IMG/VR virus record: IMGVR_UViG_3300049491_000383 | Coordinates: 72,080-136,079 of that record | Length of the DNA: 64,000 bases | Direction: 5' to 3' (one strand) | From: a virus | Shown here: positions 15,547 to 61,572 of the stretch, piece by piece | Layout of the letters: every line of letters begins with the position of its first letter | Position numbering within the stretch: position 1 is the first letter of the stretch | Program-made: the position numbers and the translations under genes | Notes under the pieces: generated by a model | Databases searched by the model: none | What the model saw: only the letters and a program-made list of their open reading frames with translations | Told to the model about the DNA's origin: nothing

Positions 15547-15666
15547 AGAATCAGTTTTACTTTGCCTGCTGCTCTACCAACTGAGCTACCTCACTATTTC
15601 TAGTGAAGGCGGGACTCGAACCCACGACCGTCTGGTTATATTAAGTTTTGTTGCGGAATTGATTCT
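15547..15666 (-). ncRNA. YrlA-like circularly permuted tRNA mimic closed by the CMGCAA helix (family member A)
   Basis: AGAATCA-ATTCCGCAAC...T-arm GTGGG-TTCGAGT-CCCGC, acceptor stem closed by GAAA, D-arm GCTC-AGTTGGTA-GAGC...TGATTCT. Confidence 0.8.
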
Positions 15667-15724
15667 TTATTATAGAGAGGTATTCGATACAACTCAGTGT
15701 TCGGATACATCCATAAATAAAATC

Positions 15725-15823
15725 AGATTAGCTTTTGGCGAGTTTTTGCTTTCCCCTCCGGAAAGGTTCTTTGACCCGAAGGCCAAATAGTTCATGGTTT
15801 TATTTTGTTGCTGTAACTAATCT
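15725..15823 (-). ncRNA. CAGCAA-helix RNA with two internal hairpins (member B)
   Basis: AGATTAG-TTACAGCAAC...TTTGGCC-TTCG-GGTCAAA, CTTTCC/GGAAAG...CTAATCT. Confidence 0.7.
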
Positions 15824-15845
15824 TTAGTGTTTGCAAGTGTCTACT

Positions 15846-30596: not shown

Positions 30597-30898
30597 ATTA
30601 TGAATGTTGTAGTGTCGAAATCTTCAGAATGTGTGGGCTCATCGACTAAGCTAAGGGACTTGCACCCTATCCGATATACTATTTCTAGTAGTGACCATTG
30701 CTTCTGCTAGACATTTTCTACAACGAAATTTTTACTCAATAGCCGAAAGTTGATCAAGGGTGATCTTGTATCCGTTATACACAAAATAGGGGCCTGTATC
30801 ATCCACTCTGTGAGCGTCAACCTTCTCTGCTTCCGTCAATTTCTTAAATTCTTTTACGTCTTCTAACGATGCTTGTTCCATTTTTTTATCCTTATATC

Positions 30899-30951
30899 AG
30901 AATGCTTATTTTCAAATTACAAGTTTGATTTTTAGTTGCTGAACGCATTCT
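30899..30951 (-). ncRNA. CAGCAA-helix RNA with Thr(UGU) anticodon stem-loop mimic (member D)
   Basis: AGAATGC-GTTCAGCAAC...TCAAA-CTTGTAA-TTTGA...GCATTCT. Confidence 0.75.
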
Positions 30952-31255
30952 TCAAGACTTCGTAACTGCGTCGTCTGTATTTATCACATTTCTACGGTTA
31001 AATTAGAATGACTTAAACCGCTTTTTCACCAATTCTACAATGTACAAGGACTCTTAGAAATTCCAGATGTGCGCCGGATATTCGCCTGCACTCAATGGGC
31101 CAATTATTCCCACATACCAACCGCCAACTTATTACACAATTTAGATCAGCGCGATGGGCACTTCGATATAATCACCTCGGTCGATAACCGATACTAATTA
31201 GGGTGAAAGATTTATATCAAAACGTTTTGGTATCGGTCGGGCCGTACCGGTCACT

Positions 31256-34902: not shown

Positions 34903-34978
34903 TGGCGCGTTGTCGGGGGATCGAACCCCGTCACCTTCAGATTTAGAATCCGCCGCTCTCCCACTGAGCTAACAACGC
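34903..34978 (-). tRNA. amber suppressor tRNA (anticodon CTA)
   Basis: Full cloverleaf, anticodon arm GCGGA-TT-CTA-AA-TCTGA, G73, CCA. Confidence 0.85.
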
Positions 34979-37094: not shown

Positions 37095-37200
37095 GTTTTC
37101 CTTTCTTACAGCACACTGAGTAAGTGCTCAATAGTTTAAAACTCAGTTAGGTACCCACTGTGGGCAAAACTATTTATCACCGGCACAAAATTATGCCAAA

Positions 37201-37222
37201 GAAAATGGGGCCGAAGCCCCAT
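37201..37222 (-). terminator. terminator after tmRNA
   Basis: ATGGGGC-TTCG-GCCCCAT followed by TTT. Confidence 0.75.
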
Positions 37223-37610
37223 GGTATTTTGGTTTACAAGGTATAACCTACCCCGGAGTCTAGTGTTTCTTAGGCAGCTAGGAGCATCATGTCGCTATCA
37301 GCCAAGGCTGAAAGGTCAAGAGCTGTCTCAGTTGTAATTGCGTTTGCTTTTACGGTTTGTGCTTGATTTACGGTCATCGCCTACCGTGTTGTCCACTCTC
37401 GTACTCTTTACCCCGTCGAATACCTGGTCCGCCCCATTATTAAACATACCGTGAAAAATTCGAATTCTCTTTCCTGCCCATACAACAGGTGACCGTCTTT
37501 AAGCTGGAGTCGAACCAGCAATAACCCATTCGATATGTTTAATGGTGGAGCGGGCGGGAATCGAACCCGCGTCCGGAACACTTTTCTGTTCGCTTCATAC
37601 AACAATAACT
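37222..37610 (-). ncRNA. ssrA: circularly permuted (two-piece) tmRNA
   Basis: The T-arm and ...CGCTCCACCA end (37543) lie upstream of the 5' end GGGGCGGACCAGGTATTCGAC (37435). G3:U70 is present. The tag ORF at 37347-37270 reads ANAITTETALDLSALADSDMMLLAA*. Confidence 0.9.
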
Positions 37611-37639
37611 AACTACTTTATAGCATTCTATTTATCTTG

Positions 37640-38924: not shown

Positions 38925-38927
38925 AAA

Positions 38928-39266
38928 TTTGATTACCCTATAGCCGGGGTTCTGTGCCTCTTTCGAGCGACAATCATTCATCTACGGTATTTAGCCGTCC
39001 TCCCCAGGTTTCAATCTGGATCATAGGTGCCACAACCCGAACCCTCGGCGAACAGCGTCAACGAGTTCTGTTTGTGTTACTGCGGGATCGTTGTGGTACA
39101 AGCGTGTTATGAACGTATAGTGCAGGGTCTCATCGACCTGGGGCCACTCTATCCATTTCCTTATGGGCGTTCTATAGCGTATAACACTTCCACAGAGCGA
39201 TGAACCCTGTTCTATGCAGGCCCGAACTTCCTCTACCTTTCAGCAGCGATTGTCCAGGTAATCAAA
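38928..39266 (-). ncRNA. rnpB: RNase P RNA
   Basis: P1 TTTGATTACC/GGTAATCAAA, GACAATCGC...GAGGAAGTTCGGGC (CR-I), AGATGAATGATTGTC (CR-IV), ACAGAACCCCGGCTATA (CR-V). Confidence 0.88.
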
Positions 39267-40246: not shown

Positions 40247-41017
40247 TTATTTATCAGATCCTAGACGTAATAGTGGGATGAAGATACGGCAGGGATCATA
40301 TTCCCACCATTTAGATCCGAAATCAAACTTAGCTGGGTATTTGTGATGATTATTGTGCCAGCCCTGTCCCCAACCTAAATACCCAAGTGGTACAAAGTTA
40401 GAACTGATATCATCTGTGTCAAAGTTTCTGTATCCAAGACTTGGCCAATGTCCAAAGACATTTACTGAAAAATCTTGAAGCATTGATATTGTTGCTGCAA
40501 TGCAGTATCCAAATAGAAGTGCTTTCCAACTTACAAGTCCAAGAAGGATAACAAATATCCATACAAGTTTGAAGTAATGTTTATGTGCAAATACGTGATT
40601 GGGTTTACGCAGTAGTTTCACAGCATATTTGTGATTCACAGATTGTGCTGTAACATGAAATATCCAACCAATAAATGCATACCATTTTCCCTTGTTAGGT
40701 GTATGTGGATCTTTTTCGGTATCGGCATGTGGGTGGTGATAACCCATATGTGTTGCTACCCAGGTGATTGAACTACTCTGGCAGGCAAGTGTTCCACATG
40801 TAAGAATAACATTATCAAGCCAAGGTTTCAATATATAACAACGGTGACTATATACTCTGTGAAATCCGGTAGCAATACCGAGCCCACTGAGTAATACCCA
40901 GAAGATAAAAGTAAGCAGGAGCCACGCATATGCCCCCGTTATTATCATTGTTGTAAGACCGATAATGCCCAATAGTGTTATCGGTAATACAATTAACCCG
41001 AAGTACCTAAAATTCAT
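40247..41017 (-). CDS. membrane fatty-acid desaturase (delta-9 type)
   Basis: His boxes HRVYSH, HMGYHH, WHNNHH; DPH.P. Confidence 0.92.
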   Translation of the reverse strand: MNFRYFGLIVLPITLLGIIGLTTMIITGAYAWLLLTFIFWVLLSGLGIATGFHRVYSHRCYILKPWLDNVILTCGTLACQSSSITWVATHMGYHHPHADTEKDPHTPNKGKWYAFIGWIFHVTAQSVNHKYAVKLLRKPNHVFAHKHYFKLVWIFVILLGLVSWKALLFGYCIAATISMLQDFSVNVFGHWPSLGYRNFDTDDISSNFVPLGYLGWGQGWHNNHHKYPAKFDFGSKWWEYDPCRIFIPLLRLGSDK

Positions 41018-45087: not shown

Positions 45088-45897
45088 TTAAATCAATTTT
45101 GCTGTTTTTACATTGGTAGCAAGACCAATTTTCTCTAACAGAGTGATAACAATAAAGCTAATGTCTACCTCTTTAGTAGATAATCCGAAACGTGCGCTGC
45201 CGGGATACTTGTGATGGTTATTGTGCCATCCTTCTCCAAAAATAGCTAATCCAAGAATTGGATTATTTTGACTCTTATCTGGCACTTCTTCAAAGTTTCT
45301 GTAACTCACAGAACTCTTTGAATGGCCAAACCAATTCAAGATATTACTTGCCAAAATTGACATGACTACTGGGATTACGAATACGTAGAAAAACATTGTA
45401 TAGCTAATGAGTGCAAGTACCAATCCAATTGATCCAAGAATCCCAAAATAGTATCTGTGCCAGAATCTAAAATATGGATCCCTGGCAATATCCTTAATAC
45501 CTTGTGCGCTAACTCTCGGGTATGCACCAAACAATGTTTTCCACACACTTGTTGGTGGATGTGGATCTAAATTCTTATCAGAATATCTGTGATGCTGACG
45601 GTGAGTCATAACCCACATAATTGGGCTGCCGGTACCAGCCATACACGCAAAGGTAGCAAATACTTTTTGGACTACCGGATGAAGCTTAACTGCCTTGTGA
45701 GTTAGTGTTCTGTGGTACGTAATACTTACGCCTAAACAGATAAAACAGAAATACAATACTAAAGAAGCGGCTATACCAATCCAACTAAATGCTACAGTAA
45801 ACGGAGATAGCAAAACTAAGATGAAAAGAAAAATATTGAAGGTAAGGAGAGTAGCAGGGTTGTTACCCTTAATGATTCCCTTAATTGTGTTGATCAT
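45088..45897 (-). CDS. second membrane fatty-acid desaturase (delta-9 type)
   Basis: HRTLTH, HRQHH, DPH.P, GEGWHNNHH. Confidence 0.92.
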   Translation of the reverse strand: MINTIKGIIKGNNPATLLTFNIFLFILVLLSPFTVAFSWIGIAASLVLYFCFICLGVSITYHRTLTHKAVKLHPVVQKVFATFACMAGTGSPIMWVMTHRQHHRYSDKNLDPHPPTSVWKTLFGAYPRVSAQGIKDIARDPYFRFWHRYYFGILGSIGLVLALISYTMFFYVFVIPVVMSILASNILNWFGHSKSSVSYRNFEEVPDKSQNNPILGLAIFGEGWHNNHHKYPGSARFGLSTKEVDISFIVITLLEKIGLATNVKTAKLI

Positions 45898-46715: not shown

Positions 46716-47376
46716 ATTTTTCAGTGATTTTATTTACATGGTACTTGTATTGATCCATAATTCTTGTCGGTGTATGATTCGTATCTTTTTTCCATAGTTC
46801 TGCATGTTTTTCTACATGCTCGTTTGCCATAATATCAAGTATGATATGTAGTCTATCATCTGTTCCATAATTAAATGCAGCGTGCGGAACAATATTATCT
46901 AAGTCAAAAAGATATCCCTGACGCATGTGATAATAGACAATTTCATAATCCTTGTCTGGAATAAAGTGAAAATTTCTACATCTGTTATTTGTCTTAAGGA
47001 CGCAATGTACTCTATGTGAAAGTTCATGATACAGGCGAGGATCTAAGTGTGGCAAGACCTGTGCGTTGACTGGTGAGAGTAAAACCTGCGATCTAAAAAT
47101 TGTGTGATTGTTGAAATGTGTATTAATCAACCAATCATACAAAGGGGAAAGTTGATACTTAAGTCTATCAACTGGTGGTATTAGACTTCCAAAATAATTT
47201 GCTGGCGTAAAGAAATCTGTTGTGGCATCATACCTAAACACCGCATTAAAGAATGCGTGTTCTTGTGTTTTGGAACTTTCGTCGTGCAAATCAAGTGTAT
47301 CTGCAACACCAATACAATACTGAATAAGATCTTCGGGAATCTTCCCCATTTCTATTGTCAGTTCAGGTAATCTCAT
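46666..47376 (-). CDS. Asp/Asn beta-hydroxylase-like oxygenase
   Basis: VLPHLD, RVH..L.TN, PHAAFN.G..DRLHIILD. Confidence 0.78.
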   Translation of the reverse strand: MRLPELTIEMGKIPEDLIQYCIGVADTLDLHDESSKTQEHAFFNAVFRYDATTDFFTPANYFGSLIPPVDRLKYQLSPLYDWLINTHFNNHTIFRSQVLLSPVNAQVLPHLDPRLYHELSHRVHCVLKTNNRCRNFHFIPDKDYEIVYYHMRQGYLFDLDNIVPHAAFNYGTDDRLHIILDIMANEHVEKHAELWKKDTNHTPTRIMDQYKYHVNKITEKYGDEDALRLIYQASLG

Positions 47377-47453
47377 GTTTCGCCATAATAGTATCTTATA
47401 TTTATCAAGCCAAAAACTTTGGTCCGATAAATACACAACCAGGAGGACAAGGC

Positions 47454-48764
47454 ATGTTTTGTAACACAGTTTGGAATGGTTTATACATTCTTCCCTACGG
47501 AGATATTAGACTCTGCTCAATCGGAAATAACCAAGATCCGACATTAGAAATGAATGCTGCAAGGGACAGAGATGGTAATATCATGAACATTCTGACTCAT
47601 GATATTAAAGAGATTATGAACTCGGATAAACATCGAGAAGTTCGTAGAGTCAACATGGCTGATCCAACTGCCTGGAGTCCACATTGCTCATGTTGTGAAA
47701 ATAGAGAGATTGTTACAAACTTCAATCGTGAACATAAAAATAAGAGTAGACGCATCTATCTTATGCAGGTAGACACAAATGGCGTTGCCTCTGAAAATGA
47801 TTTTCAAAACAAGGCCACAGAAGATGGTTCTGTAGATTGGTATCCACGAAGCCTGGACATTCGCTTTGGTAATTTATGTAATCAGAAATGTGTTATGTGC
47901 AGTCCAGAATTTAGTCACTTGTGGTATGATGATCAGAATGCATGGAATGAAAAGAAAGGCGTTAAGAAAATAGAATTTCATAATGGCCAACCGATGACAT
48001 TATTGAAGAATAAACATGATAAATGGATTCAGCCTACAGAAATGCAATGGTATGATGATCCGCGTTGGTGGCCAAAATTTGAAGAAATGATGCCACACCT
48101 ACGTCACATCTATATCACCGGTGGTGAACCAATGATTACACCGGGCCACGACACTATGCTTGATAAGCTTATTGAATCTGGTAATGCCAAGAATATTTTG
48201 TTAGAATACGATACAAATTGCAGTGTGGTAAATGACAAGATTGCTGGCCGTTGGGTCCACTTTAAGAAAGTTGACCTGCGTGGTAGTATGGATGCTATTG
48301 GTGCAGAGTATGAACTCATCCGTTCGGGCGGTAAGTGGGACCGCTTTGTTACAAATGTCAAGAAACTTAAAGAATACGAAAAAGATTCAAATAAGAAAAT
48401 TACACTGAGTGCGCTTACCTCTTGTGTTCAAACTAGCACAGCCTACAGCATTGTTGAGTCCGAAGAATGGTGTAAGTCTATCGGCATTGGTTATCATATT
48501 CGTTTCCTTGAAGGACCTCCACGTCATAGTGCAACAAATCTTCCAAGAGAGGCAAAGCTTGAACTCATCGAATACTATAGAAGTAAGGACACTGACAAAT
48601 CAAAATTGGTTGTTGCGTTTCTAAAGAAACAACTAGAATTGGGCGACACAAAACATATGAAGAGCTATATTGAATTTATGGACTTCCTCGATGTTCGAAG
48701 GAAGACAAATTGGAGAGAAACTCTTCCTAAGATTAGTGACTTGTTAGAAAGAACAATGAAATGA
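47454..48764 (+). CDS. radical SAM protein with N-terminal twitch domain
   Basis: GNLCNQKCVMC, YITGGEP; SD AGGAGG. Confidence 0.88.
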   Translation: MFCNTVWNGLYILPYGDIRLCSIGNNQDPTLEMNAARDRDGNIMNILTHDIKEIMNSDKHREVRRVNMADPTAWSPHCSCCENREIVTNFNREHKNKSRRIYLMQVDTNGVASENDFQNKATEDGSVDWYPRSLDIRFGNLCNQKCVMCSPEFSHLWYDDQNAWNEKKGVKKIEFHNGQPMTLLKNKHDKWIQPTEMQWYDDPRWWPKFEEMMPHLRHIYITGGEPMITPGHDTMLDKLIESGNAKNILLEYDTNCSVVNDKIAGRWVHFKKVDLRGSMDAIGAEYELIRSGGKWDRFVTNVKKLKEYEKDSNKKITLSALTSCVQTSTAYSIVESEEWCKSIGIGYHIRFLEGPPRHSATNLPREAKLELIEYYRSKDTDKSKLVVAFLKKQLELGDTKHMKSYIEFMDFLDVRRKTNWRETLPKISDLLERTMK

Positions 48765-49273
48765 CAAATCTGATTAGGCGTGTGGAAAAAGAGGATGCTG
48801 CAAAGATGCTCTCCGAAATTTCTACTATAGAAGATCTATTTGGTAATCATTATCGTGGAAACACCGCATACAAAGGCAGTGCTCTCGATGATGGGAAGTC
48901 CGTATGGATACACGAAGGAAAGCTCGATGATATTTTCCTTCTTGATGATAAGCTTCCCTTTGTATCTTCATACATTCGTGACACTCTAAATCTATTAGAT
49001 TCAAAGAAGGTGGGTCGTGCCTATGTCTACAATTTGGGTCCAGGACTCGAAATATTTGAACACGTAGATAGGCAACAATACTATCACATTACAAAAAGAT
49101 ACCATATCTACTTTGATGTCACAGATATTGAAATTAGACATAGTGGTCCTCCTGTTGAGTCGAATACCGTTATCTTTTTCAATCCTCTAGAACCACACGC
49201 ATACAAGAACAATTCAGACAAACCGCTAATCTTTATAGTATTCGATACTTACAATGAAACAAGAAATATTTAA
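48761..49273 (+). CDS. beta-hydroxylase-like oxygenase
   Basis: HVD..Y...RYH, PHAY.N...IFIVFD. Confidence 0.65.
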   Translation: MTNLIRRVEKEDAAKMLSEISTIEDLFGNHYRGNTAYKGSALDDGKSVWIHEGKLDDIFLLDDKLPFVSSYIRDTLNLLDSKKVGRAYVYNLGPGLEIFEHVDRQQYYHITKRYHIYFDVTDIEIRHSGPPVESNTVIFFNPLEPHAYKNNSDKPLIFIVFDTYNETRNI

Positions 49274-50150
49274 GGTACAAGAGCTGTATCCAAAAGAGGG
49301 AATGCTTGTCATTTGGTCATTGGGCAATTTCTGCCCATACAAGTGTACCTATTGCAGTCCGCACTATAATGATGGACGAGATCCATATCACTCTTTAGAA
49401 AATATTAATTCTACATTGGCTCTGATTCCAAAGCAGTCTAGGATTATATTTTCGGGTGGTGAGCCAACCTATCATCCTAACTTTGAAGAAATATTAGATA
49501 ACAAACCCGACCATTTTACATATGGTGTAATCAGTAATGGCGCAAGACCGTATGCGTTTTGGGAAAGGGTATTATCAAAACTATCACCAATCATTCTTAC
49601 ATTCCATTCCGAATTTGCAACACTAGATCGATTTCTAGAAACTGCAATGCTTTGCAAGCCCAGACTTCAGAGAATTAATCTAACAATGATTCCATGGATG
49701 TGGGAAGAGAGTGTGAATGCATATGAGACATTTACAAAATTCGGATTACCTGTATCTCCAAAACCACTTGTGAAAGATTTTGGATTTAAATCAAGTTCTC
49801 TAATTGATCAATACCTACCCGAACAGGTAGAGTGGATTAAGAGCAAGAACAACGACGGTGAATTAAAGTACATCGGGCTGTATAATTCAAAAGGCGATCT
49901 TCTAAAGAAGACTAATCCATCTGAGATGTTATCCTCTGGAGAGACAAACTTCCTCGGGTGGCAATGCCATACCCCATCAAAAACTTTGTACATAAACACC
50001 GACGGGAAAATCTATGACACCTCGTGCAAGCAGAGACGCCTTTTAGGCACAGTATCCACCGGTTTTACGCTACAAACAGACCCTGTCACCTGCCAGCAAG
50101 ACTTCTGCTGGTGTCACCCAGACATAGCTCCACTAAAAATCAAGCCATAA
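49254..50150 (+). CDS. radical SAM protein
   Basis: CPYKCTYC, FSGGEPT, C-terminal Cys cluster. Confidence 0.88.
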   Translation: MKQEIFKVQELYPKEGMLVIWSLGNFCPYKCTYCSPHYNDGRDPYHSLENINSTLALIPKQSRIIFSGGEPTYHPNFEEILDNKPDHFTYGVISNGARPYAFWERVLSKLSPIILTFHSEFATLDRFLETAMLCKPRLQRINLTMIPWMWEESVNAYETFTKFGLPVSPKPLVKDFGFKSSSLIDQYLPEQVEWIKSKNNDGELKYIGLYNSKGDLLKKTNPSEMLSSGETNFLGWQCHTPSKTLYINTDGKIYDTSCKQRRLLGTVSTGFTLQTDPVTCQQDFCWCHPDIAPLKIKP

Positions 50151-50180
50151 AAAAAGCTCGTTACCTTTCGATAACGAGCT
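50149..50180 (-). terminator. terminator for the minus-strand tRNA transcript
   Basis: AGCTCGTTA/TAACGAGCT hairpin followed by T7 on the minus strand. Confidence 0.65.
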
Positions 50181-50184
50181 AGAA

Positions 50185-50260
50185 TGGCACCCCGCTAGGG
50201 ATTCGAACCCCAACCGCGCAGCTTTGGAGGCCGGCATGCTGCCAATAACACTTGCGAGAT
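50185..50260 (-). tRNA. tRNA-Trp(CCA)
   Basis: Loop CT-CCA-AA, G73. Confidence 0.85.
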
Positions 50261-50265
50261 ATATG

Positions 50266-50340
50266 TGGAGCCGCCAAGAGGAATCGAACCCCTATTTGAA
50301 CGTTCGTAGCGTTCTGTCCTATCCGTTGAACGATGGCGAC
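50266..50340 (-). tRNA. tRNA-Arg(ACG)
   Basis: Loop CT-ACG-AA. Confidence 0.9.
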
Positions 50341-50358
50341 ATGTAATTATTTATGATT

Positions 50359-50433
50359 TGGCAGGGGAGGAAGGGATCGAACCTTCTAACCTGGTTTCAA
50401 AGACCAGTATGCATACCATTGCATATCACCCCA
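50359..50433 (-). tRNA. tRNA-Gln(TTG)
   Basis: Loop CT-TTG-AA, G73. Confidence 0.88.
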
Positions 50434-50444
50434 ACTGTATAGAC

Positions 50445-50501
50445 AGAATACGTTTTATTTTCAATTAAAAGTTGATTTTTTGAAATTGCTGAATGTATTC
50501 T
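50445..50501 (-). ncRNA. CAGCAA-helix RNA with Lys(UUU) anticodon stem-loop mimic (member E)
   Basis: AGAATAC-ATTCAGCAAT...TCAA-CTTTTAA-TTGA...GTATTCT. Confidence 0.75.
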
Positions 50502-50511
50502 TTAGAAAACT

Positions 50512-50748
50512 TTACTTTACGAAGTTGGGTTGACCTTCTCGGGCTTTCCACTTCAAATGGATCCATCCTTTTGGTACATAATGACTAATTCCAGTCTCGT
50601 CAAACAGACGATGACCTCCTGCACTAACCGATAACTTCGATGGCTTTGAAATTGTTACAACTTCTCCGCCAGGAAATGTGTATGAGCGGTAATCTTCGCT
50701 CGAAATATCTGAAAAGATATTGCTTGATTCATTAACAAATGGTGTCAT
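50512..50748 (-). CDS. conserved phage hypothetical protein
   Basis: Likely start MTPFVNES after SD AGGAGG; the longer ORF-track version overlaps a tRNA. Confidence 0.55.
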   Translation of the reverse strand: MTPFVNESSNIFSDISSEDYRSYTFPGGEVVTISKPSKLSVSAGGHRLFDETGISHYVPKGWIHLKWKAREGQPNFVK

Positions 50749-50831
50749 AAGACCTCCTAATTGATTAAAACACTTACTTGCCTTGGAAATCAAGGACGAA
50801 GTGTATTGAATCATATTTATCTGATTTCTAT

Positions 50832-50908
50832 TGGTACCCCTAGTTGGATTCGAACCTACAACCAACAGATTTTAAGTCTGTCCGCACTACCGATTAGCGT
50901 ATAGGGGC
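50832..50908 (-). tRNA. tRNA-Leu(TAA) with short variable loop
   Basis: Loop CT-TAA-AA, 4-5 nt variable loop, A73. Confidence 0.85.
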
Positions 50909-51093
50909 ATAAAAGATCAGTATGAGTTCGAATTTTGCTGTGAACCTGCAGCCGGTTATTCCACAGTTGAGGGCTATGCCTTGCCACAGATGCACCCCGG
51001 CTCGACAATATTCGACCAACCTTCCAGGAGCTTGCTCACAATGTCCTGGATAAAGCCCGGTGTGACTGTGTCTCCCCATACTGAAGGGCAAAA

Positions 51094-51185
51094 TGGAGGC
51101 CAGGGTTGGATTCGAACCAACGATGTATACCTGGGTAGTTTCCCGCTTTGCAGACGGGTGCGTTCGGCCGCTTTGCTACCTGGCC
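51094..51185 (-). tRNA. tRNA-Cys(GCA) with extended variable region
   Basis: Loop CT-GCA-AA, U73, ~20-nt variable region. Confidence 0.82.
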
Positions 51186-51335
51186 ATATTCTGACTGCTA
51201 ATGTATTAGACCGTTGCAGTACATATGCAACAGTATACCACCTGCATTGCAAGTGAGCAAGATCAATCTAATAACGTAGTAACTTCGTTTATAATCCGAC
51301 GTATACCACCGCTGTAGCACATACAGGTCGGCTTC

Positions 51336-51713
51336 TTAGGTTGCGTCTGCGCCCAATTCTTCCTGAAGCTTCTTGAACATTTTGATCTTGGATGCCTTAT
51401 CCTTTAGTTCCTTCTTGAACTTACGCTCAAGTGCAGCTTCTTCTCTCTTCTTTTTTTCCTCTTCGGCCTTCTTGGCTTCAGCGTTAGCAATTGCTAAGTA
51501 ATCCTTGAGGGTTCTTGCAACGAATGCCTTTGTATCTAACGGCTGTTCAAGAATTTGAAATCCCATTCTTGGTGCTGCGAATTGCAGAGCCTTAAACTCT
51601 TCATCAGTAACTGATTCCCATTCAGTAATGCTAGTTACAATCTTGTTGTAATCTTCACCATCATATCCAGAATAGAATTCACGTGATGTGATAATTGCAA
51701 TCTTGTGTGTCAT
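51336..51713 (-). CDS. hypothetical protein with C-terminal coiled coil
   Basis: Likely start MTHKIAII. Confidence 0.5.
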   Translation of the reverse strand: MTHKIAIITSREFYSGYDGEDYNKIVTSITEWESVTDEEFKALQFAAPRMGFQILEQPLDTKAFVARTLKDYLAIANAEAKKAEEEKKKREEAALERKFKKELKDKASKIKMFKKLQEELGADAT

Positions 51714-51801
51714 AGTTTTCCTTATATAGTCAGAGTGCGCTTTCTTTTCAAGATAATGGTTTGAAATTGTTTTAGGTTTGCGGTAAACACTCTTTAGAAA
51801 G

Positions 51802-51885
51802 TGGTGGGGCGTCCAGGTAACGATCCTGGCGGGCCGAAGCAACGGATTTACAGTCCGCTCCATCTCCTTAGTGGTCTACCACCCC
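51802..51885 (-). tRNA. tRNA-Tyr(GTA), atypical T-loop
   Basis: Loop CT-GTA-AA, variable arm, T-loop ATCGTTA. Confidence 0.8.
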
Positions 51886-51956
51886 GTATTGGTCAGCAGA
51901 ACGTTGCCAGCGTGGAGAAACATTGTCTATGAGAACAAGCGGTTCTACTCCAATAT

Positions 51957-52247
51957 CTATACACCATCTGCTTCAGCTATTGCTGCCATCAGGCATAATG
52001 CAAGAACTCTTCGCTTTTGGTTTGTTGGTTCCTTCGGTGAACCAAACGTTCCTCTATACAATGTATTATTGTATTTTTCATTTTGAAACAAGTAACACAT
52101 CGCCATAGCTTCCGGAATGTTGTAGTTGAAGAATTCCATTGACATGGGCTTCTTATATTTCACCATGTAGATAGCTGTGCAACAAAACAAAGCCTTTCCA
52201 GACTCCACTAGCTTTGCTGCTTCAAGGTATAGTGTACTTGTCTTCAT
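51957..52247 (-). CDS. hypothetical protein
   Basis: 96-aa ORF. Confidence 0.45.
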   Translation of the reverse strand: MKTSTLYLEAAKLVESGKALFCCTAIYMVKYKKPMSMEFFNYNIPEAMAMCYLFQNEKYNNTLYRGTFGSPKEPTNQKRRVLALCLMAAIAEADGV

Positions 52248-52421
52248 TTATCAATCTCAATGTCTTCGCCACGAAGTTTTGCAACTGTCGCAGCTTCTTT
52301 ACACTTCTTTGATTTACAAAAGTAAGTCCTTCCTATGCCCTTGCGATCATTTGGCTGCAAGGAAAACATATACTTTCTGCAATTATCACAGTGAACATCA
52401 ATTGTTCTGCTTGTCATATTA

Positions 52422-52497
52422 TGGTAGGCCCTGACAGCATCGAACTGTCATCACTCCGCTTAAAAGGCGGGTCTCTAGCCATTTGAGTTAAGGACCC
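52422..52497 (-). tRNA. tRNA-Lys(TTT)
   Basis: Loop CT-TTT-AA. Confidence 0.9.
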
Positions 52498-52506
52498 ATT
52501 GTATTG

Positions 52507-52581
52507 TGGTAGGACCGGGGAATTTCGAAATCCCGACCAACGGATTAAAAGTCCGCTGCTCTTCCTCTGAGCTACGATCCC
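52507..52581 (-). tRNA. tRNA-Lys(TTT), second copy
   Basis: Loop CT-TTT-AA. Confidence 0.88.
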
Positions 52582-52586
52582 TCAGA

Positions 52587-52883
52587 TTATTTCGATGGTT
52601 TAGTTAGGACTTCGTGTCCATCTCCTTGTTGTCCCGGTGTTGCCATTGTAGTTCCTTGTGACGCGATGCGCCTGTTAAGTAATTCTCTTAAATCTTTCAT
52701 GTTGCCTGCCTGTGCTCCGGTCATCCAATGATTAAGACTGGGTGAAAGATAATATGCAAGCTTTCTATATAGGTCGCTATCGCCTTCTGTCTCCTCAACA
52801 TGCTTCTGAAGAAGCAATGCATTAGACAGGGCAATACTGAGACTGTTCTCAATGTGATCGATATAATTCTTCACAACGTCCAT
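52587..52883 (-). CDS. hypothetical protein
   Basis: Likely start MDVVKNY. Confidence 0.45.
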   Translation of the reverse strand: MDVVKNYIDHIENSLSIALSNALLLQKHVEETEGDSDLYRKLAYYLSPSLNHWMTGAQAGNMKDLRELLNRRIASQGTTMATPGQQGDGHEVLTKPSK

Positions 52884-52895
52884 TGTAATCCTTAG

Positions 52896-52984
52896 TGGCG
52901 GATGATAGAGGATTTGAACCTCTGGACCGTTTATAGGTCGACGGTTTAGCAAACCGTTGCAATAAGCCTCTCTGCCAATCATCC
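52896..52984 (-). tRNA. tRNA-Ser(GCT)
   Basis: Type II, loop TT-GCT-AA, G73. Confidence 0.9.
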
Positions 52985-53135
52985 AAATTTTAAATCCTTG
53001 TAGGGAGTCGAACCCTGAGAGTATCAGTCTCTAGACCTTAGCCGTGTACCTACTAGATTTCGGGTTGCCTTTCTCTGATACATACTCGGCATGCGGTCCT
53101 ACTTCTCGTTCGGCGATCTAACAAGGACAAGTCTA

Positions 53136-53378
53136 TTATAGAGTCGTTGCTTTCTCAGAAGCAATCGACTCCAGATGCTTGCGAATGTAACGCATGAATA
53201 GCATCGCTTTATCTTCTCTTAGAAATACACCGTCTCCCACATCCTCAATAGGAACAGGGAACTCAAAACCATCAACTTCTTTGTCAAATGCCTCAACGCG
53301 GTAGAATAATTCTCCCTTGCGGTACATTACAAATTGAACACGGTTACCAGAGGCAACGTATGATTTTAAAGTTGGCAT
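53136..53378 (-). CDS. conserved phage hypothetical protein
   Basis: YRKGEL.Y...FEFPVP..D.GDG.F...DKA..FMRYIRK. Confidence 0.65.
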   Translation of the reverse strand: MPTLKSYVASGNRVQFVMYRKGELFYRVEAFDKEVDGFEFPVPIEDVGDGVFLREDKAMLFMRYIRKHLESIASEKATTL

Positions 53379-53500
53379 ATCTTTCCTTTATTATTGAATT
53401 CACAGCGCCAGGAATCGAACCTAGAGTACCAATATGAACGGAATCGAACCGTCTCTTCGGGCTGCGCGCGGTTCCCGGGCACCAAGCCTCACTGTGAAAC

Positions 53501-53577
53501 TGGCAAGGGATCTCGGACTCGAACCGAGGCTTTCATGGCTCAGAACCACGCTACTCTTCCCGTTAAGCTACTCCCCA
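53501..53577 (-). tRNA. tRNA-Gln(CTG)
   Basis: Loop TT-CTG-AG, G73. Confidence 0.82.
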
Positions 53578-53662
53578 ATTGTCTTTGGTGCCCCCGGGCT
53601 TACACCTACTACCTCATGTGGCCTACATGAGCGTTCTTCCATTCCAGGATGAGAGCATTATT

Positions 53663-53738
53663 TGGCATGCCTACGGGGAATCGAACCCCGCTTTACACCG
53701 TGAAAGGGTGTCGTCCTAAACCGATAGACGATAGGCAC
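53663..53738 (-). tRNA. tRNA-Glu(TTC)
   Basis: Loop CT-TTC-AC. Confidence 0.92.
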
Positions 53739-53744
53739 AATGTA

Positions 53745-53816
53745 TGGCAAGGGCGATGAGAATCGAACTCATTCCAACCAGGTTCAAAGCCTAGTGTCTC
53801 TCCAAGAGTCGCCCCA
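53745..53816 (-). tRNA. tRNA-Gln(TTG), compact D-arm
   Basis: Loop CT-TTG-AA; D-arm CTCT-TGG-AGAG. Confidence 0.75.
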
Positions 53817-53822
53817 ATTGTA

Positions 53823-53899
53823 TGGCATCCCCATTGGGATTCGAACCCAACTTTCCACCTTGAGAGGGTAGCGTCCTGAAACCACTAGACGATGGAGAT
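53823..53899 (-). tRNA. tRNA-Glu(CTC)
   Basis: Loop CT-CTC-AA. Confidence 0.9.
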
Positions 53900-53910
53900 A
53901 TAAATATATC

Positions 53911-54360
53911 GTGTTAAAACAAATAGATACAGATCCATTCATTGAATATCCAGAACTGCTCGACATCTGGCCACATAGGCGAGTCGAAATACTCCGTGAT
54001 GTACAGGATTGTTTGGAACATCCAGAACTTGAGCGAATGTTTCTAATAATTTACAACAACAAACCGGTAGGTATCACAGGTTATTACCAATATGATAACC
54101 AAGTCGGTCTAAACTGGCACGGTATTCTTAAAGAATACAGCGGGTATGGATACGGACTAGCAGCACTTAAGGAATTACTTCCTCTTGCCATTGCCCATTA
54201 TCCCAATGCTACATATCTAATTGAAGAATTACCTGCAATCTCTGAAAAAGAACTTAGTAGTTTCTTTCTAAAGGCCGGCTTTATGAAAACAAACATACTT
54301 GTTGATAAACCGTGGATCACAGACGATACCGATTGGATCGAATATCGTCTAAAACTCTAA
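53911..54360 (+). CDS. GNAT-family acetyltransferase
   Basis: PVGITG, WHGIL.EYSG.GYG, FFLKAGF. Confidence 0.75.
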   Translation: MLKQIDTDPFIEYPELLDIWPHRRVEILRDVQDCLEHPELERMFLIIYNNKPVGITGYYQYDNQVGLNWHGILKEYSGYGYGLAALKELLPLAIAHYPNATYLIEELPAISEKELSSFFLKAGFMKTNILVDKPWITDDTDWIEYRLKL

Positions 54361-54550
54361 TCCCAACCAAGCGTTACCTCTGTAACATACAGATGGCACA
54401 TGACGCTCTTATAATTCAGCCTAATTAGGAGGTTGGCACCATTTTTATAAGTGATGACTCCACGATTATATCGTTTATGTATGGCCATCCACGTGGGGAC
54501 CCGTACCTTGTCACCTACTTGAAATATGTGCCGTGCCATTGTTATCCTTA

Positions 54551-54621
54551 TGGACCCACCGGAGGGATTCGAACCCCCTACATGACGTTCGTAGCGTCTT
54601 GGCTATTCCAATAGCGGTGAG
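54551..54621 (-). tRNA. tRNA-Arg(ACG), compact D-arm
   Basis: Loop CT-ACG-AA; D-arm CTATT-GG-AATAG. Confidence 0.7.
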
Positions 54622-54893
54622 ATTAATAATATTTATCAAATACAGTCAGTTGACGTCTTTGCTTACTATAGTATTCTCTCTCAAGTCTGTCAACATCGGC
54701 TGCGTCTTGCGGATGGCCGGCTGTGATGTAAGCTTCCAGGTTGTGATGGTAGCTAGGCTCTGCGAAAATTTCTTTGATGTAAGCGATAAAGTTTGAAAAC
54801 ATAATGTGCTCCTTAGTATTGATAACTATTTACCAATATTTGCTGCATTGCAGCATTTATATCAGTATAAACACTAAGAACCACAAAAGTCAA

Positions 54894-54969
54894 TGGTCGC
54901 GTATGGTGGATTCGAACCACCGTATTCATTCTTATGAGGAATGCGCTCTAGCCTCTCTGCCAATACGCG
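54894..54969 (-). tRNA. tRNA-Met/Ile2(CAT)
   Basis: Loop CT-CAT-AA. Confidence 0.85.
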
Positions 54970-54980
54970 ATAAAATAATC

Positions 54981-55036
54981 AGGATACCTTTTTGCTTTTT
55001 TACAGAAAAGTTGATTTGGGTTGCGGAATGTATCCT
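54981..55036 (-). ncRNA. CCGCAA-helix RNA with Tyr(GUA)-like loop (member F)
   Basis: AGGATAC-ATTCCGCAAC...CTTTT-CTGTAAA-AAAG...GTATCCT. Confidence 0.7.
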
Positions 55037-55099
55037 TTAGAAACAGTGACCGGCTTTATCATTATATCAGATAGTGATTATAAAGCTCTCGGCCGAAAA

Positions 55100-55194
55100 T
55101 GGCGGATGGTGATGGATTTGAACCACAACCCTTTGGAAAGGGTCAAATATGATTCCAGTGATTTGCGTGCTTGCCTATCGCACTTCAACCATCC
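55100..55194 (-). tRNA. tRNA-Ser(GGA)-like, irregular anticodon stem
   Basis: GGATGGT/ACCATCC-G-CCA, variable arm ACCCTTT/AAAGGGT, CT-GGA-AT. Confidence 0.6.
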
Positions 55195-55197
55195 AGA

Positions 55198-55698
55198 TTA
55201 AAGACTATTACTTACGAAATAATCCCTTATGGTATTGTAGGTATGGGGCAATTTAAACCCTAACCCAAGAACATACCGTGTTTCACCTAAATTTAATACT
55301 GAATGAGTAGATTGAGTATTTAGCAGATACATTCCGCCGGGCTCATATACCAATTCTTCTATATTTTTCTTATTACTATGCTCTGCGTCTTCTCCATACA
55401 CCGTATGTGAGTGACCAGACCATATTTCAATGTTTAGTGCTGCTGTTCTATCTGCATCCACATGCCATTTATACCAATAATTAGCAGGTGTACGGAAAAT
55501 GTTTGATTTTACACCAAACTCTTTCATTATTTTGTCTACAACAGGATCAATTATAACACCCTGCGATATGTTAAGTACATCAAAACCATAACCAATGTTG
55601 TTCCAGGTATGATCTTTTGAGAAAATGTATTCCCTAACTTCGTTTAAAGATTGAAACTGTGAGTTGAGCTTGATGAAATTGTTATTCATATCTAACAT
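55198..55698 (-). CDS. 2OG-Fe(II) oxygenase-like protein
   Basis: WHVD..R.AALN, LLNT...HSV.N...RY. Confidence 0.6.
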   Translation of the reverse strand: MLDMNNNFIKLNSQFQSLNEVREYIFSKDHTWNNIGYGFDVLNISQGVIIDPVVDKIMKEFGVKSNIFRTPANYWYKWHVDADRTAALNIEIWSGHSHTVYGEDAEHSNKKNIEELVYEPGGMYLLNTQSTHSVLNLGETRYVLGLGFKLPHTYNTIRDYFVSNSL

Positions 55699-56242
55699 AC
55701 TTACTAAAAATTTCTAAACTCTCTGTAAGCGTTACCCAATTGTTATTCTTCTTAAAGAAAACACTTACACTCCATCGTTTCTCGTTGCTTGTGTTAAACA
55801 CTGCATGTGGAGTACCGGCATCTATCAGGCACCATCCAGATAATGCTTGTTCTTCTAGCTGAACACTATCTGCGAAATCAAAAGGTACATACACGGTACC
55901 GATAGCCGAATTCTTTGACACTTTATCTGCCCGGCAACGAGCATTGATGTCATACCAGCGCATTGTGCTACCAGTACCACCAATGACATAGTTAAGTTTG
56001 CTTCTACTTTCCCATTTATCTGGTAGTAGTGTGCCATCTATGTGACAACTTCTACTATTTGTATTAGGTTGCATATGAAATATCTCCATATGTCCTATAG
56101 TGAGTCCCAGATTCTGGAATAGTTTATGGATATCGGGGTGTATCTGTGTGTCAGTATCTAACCTAGTATGATATTGATCCTTTGGTAAATCTGCATTTAC
56201 AAAGGGAAACATATCTAGATTGATGTTGACACTATACTTCAT
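55682..56242 (-). CDS. 2OG-Fe(II) oxygenase-like protein
   Basis: HIDG, PHAV.N...RWSVS. Confidence 0.6.
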   Translation of the reverse strand: MKYSVNINLDMFPFVNADLPKDQYHTRLDTDTQIHPDIHKLFQNLGLTIGHMEIFHMQPNTNSRSCHIDGTLLPDKWESRSKLNYVIGGTGSTMRWYDINARCRADKVSKNSAIGTVYVPFDFADSVQLEEQALSGWCLIDAGTPHAVFNTSNEKRWSVSVFFKKNNNWVTLTESLEIFSKYVRYE

Positions 56243-57057
56243 TTATAAATCTTTGCGTGATCGAATGCAATTCTATGCAGAACACGCTCTTCCATATTCT
56301 CAAAATACCAACGCTTGTGAATACTTAACCATTGTTCAGAGATAACAATATCGCCATCTTGCCAATTATGATGGTACATGTATTTTTCTTGCAGTACATG
56401 TGCCTTAAGTTTCTCAAGTATAGTACGAAACTTAGTTTCTTCACAGTCCTTGAAGCCAAAGATTTGTAAGAATGGCAAAAATAACCCTGTCTCACCCTCT
56501 TCGTTAGTTTGAACTAGCTTAATTGGATTGTTTAGGTTGACGTGATCTTTGAAATATTCGGAAGTTGAGTATTGACCGTTCTTGTATCCACAATAGATTT
56601 CAATATCCTTAATCTGTTCTTTTAGCAATGGATGCAAATCACGATAACTCATGATGTTGTTTATCCAGCTTGTTCTAGAGCCGACAGTACCCTGTTCAGC
56701 ATAAAGCCAAATTAGGGGATTTCTTACAGGATTAGATGGTTGATTAGCGTGCCAATCAAGATCTTCTTTATGGCCAAACAGTCCTTCTTGGCCGTCAGCA
56801 TTCTTTTTACCTGTAACTCTAATGACATTGTCAGAGAGTGCTATGTGCTTTGCTCTCTCCATGTTGTTCTGTTGGACATTACCTGCAATTTTGCAGAATC
56901 TAACCTCATCATCTAGCGTTAGCGTCTGCTGCGGGAATACAACTACCATGTTCTTTACGGTTAGGCGGATAACCTCTCTTACTTCGTCTTCTGACAAAGT
57001 TCGAATGTCATCTCTAATGATTATTGTCCAACCATTCTCGTGTAGCTCAATCTTCAT
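56239..57057 (-). CDS. TauD/TfdA-family dioxygenase
   Basis: LDWHAN, H.WQDGDIVI, IHKR, R.LHR. Confidence 0.85.
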   Translation of the reverse strand: MKIELHENGWTIIIRDDIRTLSEDEVREVIRLTVKNMVVVFPQQTLTLDDEVRFCKIAGNVQQNNMERAKHIALSDNVIRVTGKKNADGQEGLFGHKEDLDWHANQPSNPVRNPLIWLYAEQGTVGSRTSWINNIMSYRDLHPLLKEQIKDIEIYCGYKNGQYSTSEYFKDHVNLNNPIKLVQTNEEGETGLFLPFLQIFGFKDCEETKFRTILEKLKAHVLQEKYMYHHNWQDGDIVISEQWLSIHKRWYFENMEERVLHRIAFDHAKIYK

Positions 57058-57259
57058 TCTTCATTCCCCATTTAATCTTAAGCCATACTCTTTCGTGTAT
57101 ATAATAATCAAGGCTTAGGAGAACATGAAGTGCGGTAGCAAAGCCTGCTGAGGCCATAATGCTTCCTGTAAATAAAAATGTCCAGAAGATAGTGAATAGC
57201 CAGGCAGTAAGCCTATAACTTATCATACGAGCAATTGTTCTCTTATGTGTTTCAATCAT
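57047..57259 (-). CDS. DUF2061-like small membrane protein
   Basis: ETHKRT.ARMISYR...YYIHERVW..I.WG. Confidence 0.75.
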   Translation of the reverse strand: MIETHKRTIARMISYRLTAWLFTIFWTFLFTGSIMASAGFATALHVLLSLDYYIHERVWLKIKWGMKNED

Positions 57260-57310
57260 AATATGCCTAAACAAATATTTATATGATGTGTTAACACGCG
57301 ATTTTGTTTC

Positions 57311-57384
57311 TGGTGCGGGCGGCGGGAATCGAACCCGCGAATGAACATTGGCAATGTTCGAGTATACCACTTACTTACACACGC
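57311..57384 (-). tRNA. tRNA-Gly(GCC) with A73
   Basis: Loop TT-GCC-AA; discriminator A instead of U. Confidence 0.82.
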
Positions 57385-57389
57385 ATATA

Positions 57390-57481
57390 TGGCGGAAGAA
57401 GGACGTGTCGATCGCCTACCGGCTCGTCACCGATACACCTGTTTTCAAGGCAGAGACTGAGGCCGCTCAGTGTCATCTTCC
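57390..57481 (-). tRNA. selC-like (8/4) tRNA-Ser(TGA)
   Basis: GGAAGATG/CTTCTTCC-G-CCA, 6-bp D-stem ACTGAG-CGGC-CTCAGT, CT-TGA-AA, long variable arm, T-loop ATCGACA. Confidence 0.72.
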
Positions 57482-57485
57482 ATAT

Positions 57486-57561
57486 TGGTACCTGGTGTAG
57501 GACTCGAACCTACATAAGTCATCTTGTAAGGATGGCGGTTAACCTCTCACACCAACCAGGC
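57486..57561 (-). tRNA. tRNA-Val(TAC)
   Basis: Loop CT-TAC-AA. Confidence 0.85.
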
Positions 57562-58598: not shown

Positions 58599-58615
58599 AA
58601 CGGTCGAAATAAATC

Positions 58616-58717
58616 AGGATGTTTGGCTTTGGACCAGGAGTCGAACCCTATTGCCATGCCCCCTCTGGGCTGGTCCGCTGAGTTTTGGTAGCGATTTTAG
58701 ATTGCTGAAACCATCCT
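58616..58717 (-). ncRNA. CAGCAA-helix RNA with T-loop domain (member H)
   Basis: AGGATG-GTTTCAGCAAT...GG-TTCGACT-CC...CATCCT. Confidence 0.7.
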
Positions 58718-58724
58718 TTAAACT

Positions 58725-61388: not shown

Positions 61389-61455
61389 GTGTGCCTTTCT
61401 GTTTGATGTAGTGAATCTACCTCTACACTATAATACAGTTGGCTCTTTGTGTCAA

Positions 61456-61572
61456 TGGTGCCGCCGCCGGGAATCGAACACCGGATCTACTCCTTGTAAT
61501 GGAATTTAGATTGCTGTATGTATCCTTGACAGGATCACCTTTTTAGTTGTGTTGCCTTTACACTACAGCGAC
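61456..61572 (-). ncRNA. CCA-ending tRNA(UAC)-like RNA with the CAGCAA helix inserted between the D and anticodon arms (member I)
   Basis: GTCGCTG/CGGCGGC-A-CCA, D-arm, insert ATCCT-GTCA-AGGAT-ACATACAGCAAT, TTCC-ATTACAA-GGAG, T-arm. Confidence 0.78.

Follow-up and report, generated by a model that had tools for sequence, protein, structure and literature searches.

A stretch of viral DNA of 64,000 nucleotides (nt) (IMG/VR virus record IMGVR_UViG_3300049491_000383, positions 72,080 to 136,079; hereafter, the window) carries on its minus strand, at 54981-55036, a 56-nt element that belongs to a widespread, so far uncatalogued family of structured RNAs found among phage tRNA genes. Members of the family share a constant part, referred to here as the handle, and bear a variable module that appears to be derived from tRNA; in the 56-nt element, this module takes the form of a tRNA-Tyr anticodon arm. 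The family co-occurs with, and is genomically linked to, the gene of a phage protein whose predicted model has the Ro60 fold. We consider it probable that the element is a miniature Y-RNA-like partner of this Ro60-like protein, displaying the Tyr anticodon arm, perhaps as bait for defence nucleases. This reading is suggested by the design of the system, because location near a Ro60-type gene, a terminal stem and a tRNA-mimicking module match Ro60-Y RNA systems.

Sequence and fold of the 56-nt element

Read on the minus strand from 55036 to 54981, the element consists of AGGATAC, A, TTCCGCAAC, CCAAATCAA, CTTTT, CTGTAAA, AAAG, CAAAAAG, and GTATCCT. Its parts are as follows:

54981-55036, minus strand: the whole 56-nt element, made up of a terminal helix of 7 bp, the handle motif, and a mimic of a Tyr-type anticodon arm; delimited by sequence, a pattern scan and covariance model R1
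55030-55036, minus strand: 5' arm AGGATAC of the terminal helix, delimited by helix pairing and conservation over 64 distinct copies
55020-55028, minus strand: handle motif TTCCGCAAC, from the consensus over 64 copies
54995-55010, minus strand: inner hairpin, with CTTTT (55010-55006), CTGTAAA (55005-54999), and AAAG (54998-54995), from the fold and from orthologues
54981-54987, minus strand: 3' arm GTATCCT, followed by an invariant G at 54980, from the 64-copy alignment

The 5' arm is directly preceded by TTCTAA (55037-55042), whose final A, together with the AG of the arm, makes up the AAG start that is characteristic of the family; the 3' end of the element is CUGA. The pattern AGGATAC-N30-60-GTATCCT has a single match in the window, and had no match in 100 shuffles. 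The 9-mer TTCCGCAAC is not enriched by itself (18 matches with at most one mismatch versus 13.0 expected, with 18 or more being observed in 14 of 100 shuffles), and is informative only in combination with the helix. Covariance model R1 (see below) matched the element at 54977-55042 with a score of 70.2 bits. The element was called neither by ARAGORN nor by the Rfam tRNA model, and no promoter-like site was found directly upstream of it. A tRNA-like 3' end (T-loop and CCA) is located just upstream of the element, at ca. 55093-55190 of the minus strand, and is likewise called neither by ARAGORN (with or without introns) nor by Rfam.

An earlier note on this DNA assigned the element to a structured RNA family, and read its inner hairpin as an anticodon arm with the tRNA-Tyr loop, with the caveat that the weak stem also allows a 6-nt loop. 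The loop CTGTAAA is indeed identical to the anticodon loop of the same phage's tRNA-Tyr (51802-51885). The hairpin can form in two ways: a 7-nt loop is closed by 4 bp, one of them G-U, and a 6-nt loop by 5 bp. The caveat was justified: calculated energies were -5.8 kcal/mol for the helix with the 6-nt loop versus -2.0 kcal/mol for the helix with the 7-nt loop, i.e., the 7-nt register is 3.8 kcal/mol worse, a point against the Tyr-type arm. The minimum free energy of the element, -7.9 kcal/mol, comes from a third pairing (z = -1.71; 10 of 200 shuffles fold equally well or better).

Homologues of the element were sought by scanning metagenome contigs with a 17-mer, and 80 loci among 100 matching stretches were examined. 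No closing arm was present within 110 nt in 71 loci, which were taken as chance or unrelated matches; two further loci, 74 and 81 nt long, had a closing arm, but their kinship is doubtful and they were not counted as orthologues. The remaining seven are orthologues of the element. Among the matches listed, all seven are 57 nt long and contain one extra A, resulting in CTTTT-CTGTAAA-AAAAG, i.e., 5 bp with a 7-nt loop. In these seven, the features of a tRNA anticodon arm (a stem of 5 bp, a loop of 7 nt, U33, and a purine at 37) are matched exactly. The CTGTAAA loop is also present in two other phages, where it is closed by unambiguous stems (TTCA/TGAA and TCTTT/AAAGA). Since all seven orthologues and the two other phages carry it, homologues favour the 7-nt Tyr-type loop; the alignment of homologues, which the earlier note had named as capable of overturning its reading, went the other way. 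The analysis brought up no connection of the RNA with the colicin E5-type and PtuAB nucleases mentioned in that note, nor with queuosine. The copy in the window appears to be either a variant that is shorter by 1 nt or the product of a homopolymer error.

A family of RNAs with a conserved handle

A simple helix-plus-motif scan identified four short copies in the window. When a degenerate pattern was applied to the whole record, five matches on the reverse strand were obtained, with none on the forward strand and none in controls; in an early viral scan, four of 12 stretches were family members. Covariance model R1, which was built from nine copies from five phages, produced 80 matches in the loci searched, 64 of them distinct, from 46 sources. 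Seven R1 matches are in the window and, together with a closed form at 61455-61570 (described below), bring the number of copies there to eight.

The membership of the element in a structured family is borne out by covariation. In the 64 distinct copies, the outer (terminal) helix is 99.3% paired, with compensatory, two-sided changes in six of its seven pairs, and the inner helix is 90.3% paired, with two-sided changes in all five pairs; with kinship among the copies and an alignment that had been fitted to the model, these figures are inflated and the counts are not independent, a caution against taking them at face value. The pairing values were reached in none of 500 shuffles, and slid controls gave 34-46%.

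The T, C, G, and C of the handle consensus, T-[T/A]-C-[A]-G-C-A-A, are invariant in 64 of 64 copies, as is the fifth pair of the helix, U-A. The G that follows the 3' arm is likewise present in all 64 copies, the A preceding the 5' arm is present in 63, and the A and G of the helix in 62 each. CCA follows the 3' arm in none of the 64. The constant handle thus starts with AAG and ends with CUG, and comprises a 7-bp helix, the unpaired stretch U(U/A)C(A)GCAA, and a 3' strand rich in A. All copies are on the tRNA strand.

R1 does not detect every form of the family. When it was run with filters off on 9-kb loci around the S13 and nt-1 genes (see below), nothing was found at E < 0.2, despite three handle-bearing RNAs of S13 that can be seen by eye. 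We conclude from this failure that R1 misses the closed and long-cargo forms.

Several other readings of the handle were tried and rejected. A k-turn, a GNRA tetraloop closure, and a T-loop, considered by eye, were dropped, as no consistent closing pairs were present. Theta ribozymes, which are found beside phage tRNAs, form a nested double pseudoknot in which the 3' end pairs with a segment that follows P1; in the present family, the RNA's 5' and 3' ends pair with each other, and Rfam scans revealed no ribozyme family at E <= 10, so that a theta/HDV-like ribozyme was rejected. Hammerhead and other small ribozymes were ruled out by topology and by the Rfam scans. An intron or splicing-signal reading, prompted by closed handles inside tRNAs, was abandoned because it leaves the short copies unexplained.

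The variable module resembles parts of tRNA

The following members of the family are present in the window in addition to the 56-nt element:

50441-50507, minus strand: short copy with a Lys-type loop CTTTTAA, 12 nt before tRNA-Gln (scan and R1)
51728-51799, minus strand: copy whose loop is the 9-nt ACCATTATC; it follows the CCA of tRNA-Tyr by 8 nt and lies just ahead of an open reading frame (scan and R1)
30895-30957, minus strand: copy with a Thr-type loop CTTGTAA, just before an open reading frame (scan and R1)
15543-15672, minus strand: long, YrlA-like member, in which the handle bears a tRNA body in permuted order, with T arm, sealed acceptor hairpin, and D arm (R1 and fold)
15721-15829, minus strand: long member, in tandem with 15543-15672 (R1)
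58612-58723, minus strand: long member with T-loop-like cargo, directly after tRNA-Leu (R1)
61455-61570, minus strand: tRNA-shaped gene with a real acceptor stem and ACCA, with a closed handle that follows the D arm and precedes an anticodon arm of Val(UAC) type (reading of the sequence)

The Thr and Lys cases with which the earlier note had compared the element are therefore real (30899-30951, loop CTTGTAA, and 50445-50501, loop CTTTTAA).

The content of the handle was analyzed in the 46 distinct short copies, using 1000 shuffles for comparison. Some hairpin with a 7-nt loop can be formed by 36 copies (shuffle mean, 12.6; maximum, 22). A loop of the anticodon type, N-T-NNN-R-N (U at position 2, a purine at position 6, and a stem of at least 4 bp), was found in 29 copies (mean, 2.6; maximum, 8), and in 25 it also begins with a pyrimidine (mean, 1.1; maximum, 5). 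When hairpins were chosen by energy alone, the loop was 7 nt long in 26 of the 45 copies that have a hairpin, 9 nt in six, 6 nt in five, 3 nt in five, and 5, 8, and 12 nt in one copy each; one short copy has no hairpin at all. The middle triplets of the loops are TTT, TGT, GTA, GTT, TGG, GCA, TGA, CAT, TCC, TCT, TTC, TAA, and TAT, with the Lys type (TTT) being the most frequent (ca. 10 of the 29 canonical loops). The CT...AA framing of the loops is that of the phage's own tRNAs. As judged from the sequence, the loop CTGCTAA is common to copies from Mycobacterium phage Samty and Campylobacter phage CP81. The odd 9-nt loop ACCATTATC, which is not of the anticodon type, is kept on a 6-7-bp stem in three phages (window 51728-51799; L018 327-398; L115 1501-1572).

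In longer copies, the cargo is an anticodon arm together with a T arm, an entire cloverleaf body, or a permuted body (T arm, sealed acceptor hairpin, and D arm). In a third topology, the handle forms a closed hairpin within a tRNA that is otherwise complete and has ACCA. ARAGORN, run with introns on 61455-61570, reported a 44-nt insertion as an intron and the label tRNA-Cys(aca); by our reading, the arm that follows the handle is probably of the Val(UAC) type. The same topology is found in Cronobacter phage S13 (NC_028773), in which an annotated 121-nt 'tRNA-Ser' (L132 5896-6016) and a 113-nt 'tRNA-OTHER' (6026-6138) are tRNA bodies with an inserted closed handle. A third, permuted member of S13 (ca. 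6148-6290) has a 7-bp acceptor stem and ACCA, and all three are downstream of an 'RNA-binding protein' gene. Taken together, these sequences indicate that the cargo of the handle is derived from tRNA.

A Ro60-like protein and its linkage to the RNA family

Two protein genes in the window are relevant to the family:

14096-15529, minus strand: P0001, a 477-amino-acid Ro60-like protein (DUF2828 and DUF7788/vWA), the proposed partner of the handle (domain and fold search)
17940-19025, minus strand: RNA ligase (PF09414 and PHA02142 OB fold); its gene lies upstream of both the long members (by 2.1 kb) and the Ro60-like gene (by 2.4 kb)

P0001 matches the profiles of DUF7788 (3.8e-51), DUF2828 (1e-26), and phrog_850 'RNA-binding protein' (6e-150). 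An AlphaFold (AF2) model of P0001 built from 69 sequences had a mean predicted local distance difference test score (pLDDT) of 89.8 and a predicted template modelling (TM) score (pTM) of 0.87. In a Foldseek search with this model, all 13 PDB matches at E <= 0.001 were Ro60/TROVE proteins (TM scores of 0.46-0.65) from Thermus phage phiLo, Xenopus, human, and Deinococcus, with vWA domains coming next. The DxSxS sequence of the MIDAS (metal ion-dependent adhesion site) motif is invariant in 69 P0001-type sequences. The predicted structure of P0001 is therefore that of Ro60, i.e., a ring of HEAT repeats and a vWA domain with a MIDAS motif. P0001 is conserved to a degree that is unusual among phage proteins: identity to it is 78-94% in the best 120 database clusters, and 7999 of 8000 candidates scored had E <= 1e-5. 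A homologue of P0001 is encoded in 710 cultured phage records, and in mycobacteriophages the annotation reads 'Ro-like RNA binding protein'.

In the window, the two tandem long members are located 14 nt upstream of the P0001 gene, an attachment that the earlier note had not recognized. All 10 uncultured phage records that hold the RNA family also contain a P0001 homologue, and in six of them (G000, G001, G002, G003, G005, and G007) a family member is located within 1.3 kb of, and on the same strand as, the homologue. In named phages, the best genome-wide R1 match was found 105 nt upstream of the gene in Campylobacter phage CP81, 190 nt upstream in Listeria phage LP-124, 246 nt downstream in Mycobacterium phage Samty (a weak match, E 0.036), and 0.5 kb downstream in Salmonella phage FO1a, where the second match is at 0.95 kb. 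In Cronobacter phage S13, the three handle-bearing RNAs are 0.5-0.9 kb downstream of the gene. None of the three control phages (T4, T5, and phiKZ) has a P0001 homologue, and their best R1 matches (E 0.047-0.32) are at chance level. In LP-124 (L239 4309-4458), an RtcB-like 'tRNA-splicing ligase' gene is located ca. 1.3 kb downstream of the DUF2828 gene, an order that echoes the bacterial rsr-Y RNA-rtcB arrangement.

Comparison with known RNAs

Phage Ro60 proteins with tRNA-like Y RNAs are already known. Passages of Chen et al. (2014; PMC4201824) describe Y RNAs encoded within 4 kb of Ro60 on the same strand, whose terminal stem binds the protein and whose variable module mimics tRNA. According to another paper (PMC12135203), two Y-like RNAs (Yrl1/Yrl2) are located upstream of the Ro60 gene of Thermus phage phiLo, and there is a complex with the host PNPase; a third (PMC7824862) states that jumbo phages employ TROVE proteins and a tRNA-like partner for RNA repair. 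The family resembles Y RNA/YrlA in consisting of small RNAs with paired ends and a tRNA-mimicking variable module; in both, the RNA genes lie near that of a Ro60-type protein and on its strand, a locus often has two or more of them, and phages are among the carriers. YrlA's design of T arm, sealed acceptor, and D arm is additionally shared by the long members; the Rfam YrlA model (RF02553) matched the long member at 15543-15672 partially (15571-15629, model positions 27-81), with 35.8 bits versus a gathering score of 69.

There are also clear differences from YrlA. Location within ca. 4 kb of a Ro60 orthologue on the same strand is found for the family but not for the copy at 54981-55036, and this copy contains an anticodon-type arm only, rather than the T and D arms of the YrlA module. 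The DUF2828/DUF7788 form of the protein is missed by the Pfam TROVE model. Short members consist of an anticodon arm alone, with a canonical loop and a varying triplet, and copies are scattered through the tRNA array (eight in the window). Lastly, the handle also occurs closed as a hairpin within complete tRNAs.

The Rfam family nearest to the short copies is Dictyostelium Class I RNA (RF01414), which scored 23.7 bits on the element and was the top match for 14 of a set of 20 short copies, with full-model scores of 20.7-34.8 bits; the gathering score of 41.5 was never reached. In the whole window, RF01414 had two matches, both of them family members. Passages of Kjellin et al. (2021; PMC7919456) describe Class I RNA as 42-65 nt long; it starts with AAG and ends with CUGU, its 6-bp stem covaries and contains a G that is invariant, and a motif adjoins the 5' arm. 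Compared with that description, the phage handle shares the size of 42-65 nt, a covarying stem of 6-7 bp, a conserved 5' G, the AAG start, the CUG(U) end, and an A/U-rich variable middle. The motif directly 3' of the 5' arm matches partially, the Rfam consensus being CCUUACAGCAA and some phage copies having TTACAGCAA. Class I RNAs, however, come from a eukaryotic host and have their own promoter element, the DUSE, ca. 60 nt upstream, while the phage record has bacterial-type tRNAs and tmRNA. The known binder of Class I RNA is an RRM protein, and Pfam RRM was found in none of five complete phage genomes. The same paper (PMC7919456) reports no link to tRNA or Ro60 and states that the class is unique to Dictyostelia. 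The likeness between the phage handle and Class I RNA may be due to shared ancestry, to a shared kind of protein partner, or to convergence.

Phage tRNAs that replace or evade tRNAs cut by defence nucleases (PARIS/AriB, PrrC, and Cas13a) are encoded in the same setting of large arrays and presumably take part in the same conflict over the anticodon loop. They are complete and chargeable, in contrast to an isolated anticodon arm on a non-tRNA handle that lacks an acceptor end; the cloverleaf, the discriminator base with CCA, and the D and T arms of a tRNA are all missing from the element. Supplementary locus tables aside, we found no description in the literature of the handle, of arm-only members with varying anticodons, of their multiplicity in tRNA arrays, or of closed-handle chimeras.

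Genomic setting

The window makes up the final 64 kb of an IMG/VR record of 136 kb, whose completeness is estimated at 35%; relatives that have terminal repeats measure 254-385 kb. ARAGORN identified 55 tRNA genes and a permuted tmRNA in the window, every one of them on the minus strand. The same DNA recurs in metagenomes from freshwater and freshwater sediment; for window 49500-57500, the runs listed were five DNA runs, with no RNA run among them. Other features of the window are:

38925-39265, minus strand: directly upstream of tRNA-Asp, a candidate for a reduced RNase P RNA encoded by the phage; bacterial RNase P RNA class A is matched over its full length with 68.5 bits and E 1e-18 (threshold, 100 bits)
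37179-37635, minus strand: circularly permuted, two-piece tmRNA gene with its own tag peptide
34903-34978, minus strand: tRNA with anticodon CTA, labelled Pyl by ARAGORN; it is likely an amber suppressor, and hints at stop-codon recoding in part of the phage
10641-11801, 47355-48764, and 49254-50150: three radical-SAM proteins, interspersed with the tRNA array
40247-41017 and 45088-45897: two fatty-acid desaturase-like proteins, interspersed with the tRNA array
56239-57057: TauD-type dioxygenase, within the tRNA array region

Discussion

We propose that the 56-nt element would be transcribed together with the phage tRNA array, and that the handle of the element would be bound by P0001, the ring-shaped Ro60-like protein that the phage itself encodes, much as Ro60 binds the terminal stem of Y RNA. 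The variable module would be a copy of part of a tRNA, in this case an anticodon arm whose loop, CUGUAAA, is that of tRNA-Tyr. In the Ro60 particles known so far, Y RNA uses its variable part to tether Ro60 to a second protein or to gate the cavity of Ro60. The phage particle might, by analogy, present its Tyr anticodon arm to anticodon-loop-reading proteins; host tRNA-cutting defence nucleases are the most plausible targets, and the RNA would act on them as bait or competitor. Alternatively, the particle may be an RNA-repair platform that acts with the nearby RNA ligase. We infer transcription and processing of the element, binding of the handle by the protein, and a decoy or tether function.

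In addition to the fold energies of the element and the inflated pair counts, several observations weigh against this proposal. The canonical anticodon-type loop is absent from 17 of the 46 short copies, and the A/U-rich hairpin stems are marginal (ca. -1.7 to +2 kcal/mol on their own). The Pfam TROVE model had no match in five of five records, and a sequence search of PDB with P0001 gave nothing better than E 0.35; the Ro60 assignment therefore relies on the predicted fold. The linkage holds for the family and not for this copy, since 54981-55036 is ca. 39 kb away from the Ro60-like gene. In the other four of the 10 uncultured records, the nearest detected copy is 5.6-8 kb from the gene, and in Vibrio phages KVP40 and nt-1 the best genome-wide R1 match is 7-9 kb from it, inside tRNA clusters. 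The handle motif U(U/A)C(A)GCAA is different from the Ro60-binding GNCGAA(N)G / GGUCCGA given in passages of PMC4201824, and RF02553 matches, below threshold, only the tRNA-like part of one long member.

Four other explanations were weighed. It is unlikely, in our opinion, that the element is a stand-alone anticodon-arm decoy that needs no Ro60-like protein, with a handle that provides stability or processing sites and a loop that competes with tRNA-Tyr for an anticodon nuclease or a modification enzyme. The strong enrichment of anticodon-type loops would be expected of such a decoy, as would the prevalence of Lys(UUU)-type loops, tRNA-Lys being a known nuclease target, and the distance of the 54981-55036 copy from the Ro60-like gene agrees with it. 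However, the invariant single-stranded bases of the handle suggest sequence-specific recognition rather than mere stability, the same handle bears cargo that has no anticodon loop, and the tight linkage to the Ro60-like gene over four phage families is left unexplained.

We think it improbable that the copies are processing punctuation, i.e., tRNA-like spacers that guide endonucleolytic cuts in long tRNA-mRNA transcripts and have no role in trans. Their positions would fit, as copies follow a tRNA CCA by 8 nt, precede a tRNA by 12 nt, or precede a ribosome-binding site and ATG by ca. 10 nt; so would the lack of a promoter-like site directly upstream of the element and the RNase P RNA-like gene in the window. 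Such spacers do not, however, account for canonical anticodon loops with a varying triplet, for the closed handle hairpin within complete tRNAs, or for the linkage to the Ro60-like gene, and a 7-bp stem without a T arm is a poor substrate for RNase P or RNase Z.

A minimal ('armless') tRNA that is charged and used in translation is highly improbable: armless mitochondrial tRNAs do resemble a 7-bp terminal helix with an arm of 5 bp and 7 nt, and intermediate copies have an anticodon arm with a T arm or a full cloverleaf body, but CCA is missing after the 3' arm of all copies, whereas the tRNA 3' ends read here encode CCA or ACCA, neither ARAGORN nor the Rfam tRNA model recognizes the element, a 10-nt conserved motif occupies the place expected for the D arm, and the acceptor end of long copies is sealed. 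We also find it hard to credit a DNA-level repeat (a miniature inverted-repeat mobile element or a protein-binding site on DNA), which would explain the multiple copies and the 7-bp terminal inverted repeats, but not the G-U pairs in the helix and the presence of every copy on the tRNA strand, which argue for RNA, nor arms that covary rather than stay conserved, no target-site duplication being seen in the flanks.

The interpretation as a partner of the Ro60-like protein can be extended to a broader one, which we put forward very tentatively and which is more likely wrong than right. The handle may define one RNA class of tailed phages (at least four families) and dictyostelid amoebae, in which case Class I RNAs would partner a Ro60/DUF2828-type protein, and the phage mini-Y RNAs would form a set of anticodon-arm baits, each with a different anticodon, by which a phage Ro60 particle captures or blunts tRNA-targeting defence nucleases.

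Particles of Ro60 and Y RNA have been described from animals, from bacteria, and from a few phages. The family reported here offers a proposed cognate RNA handle for the very common phage 'DUF2828 / RNA-binding protein'. Its carriers include Felix O1-type phages, KVP40 and nt-1, and phages of Listeria, Campylobacter, and mycobacteria, so the idea is testable in laboratory systems. The annotation of the oversized 'tRNA-Ser' and 'tRNA-OTHER' of S13 should be corrected to handle-bearing chimeras, and the likeness to Class I RNA suggests a class of protein to seek in Dictyostelium. The reduction of the variable module to a single anticodon arm with a varying anticodon points to proteins that read anticodons as the targets, and would tie Ro60 to the conflict between phage and host over tRNA.
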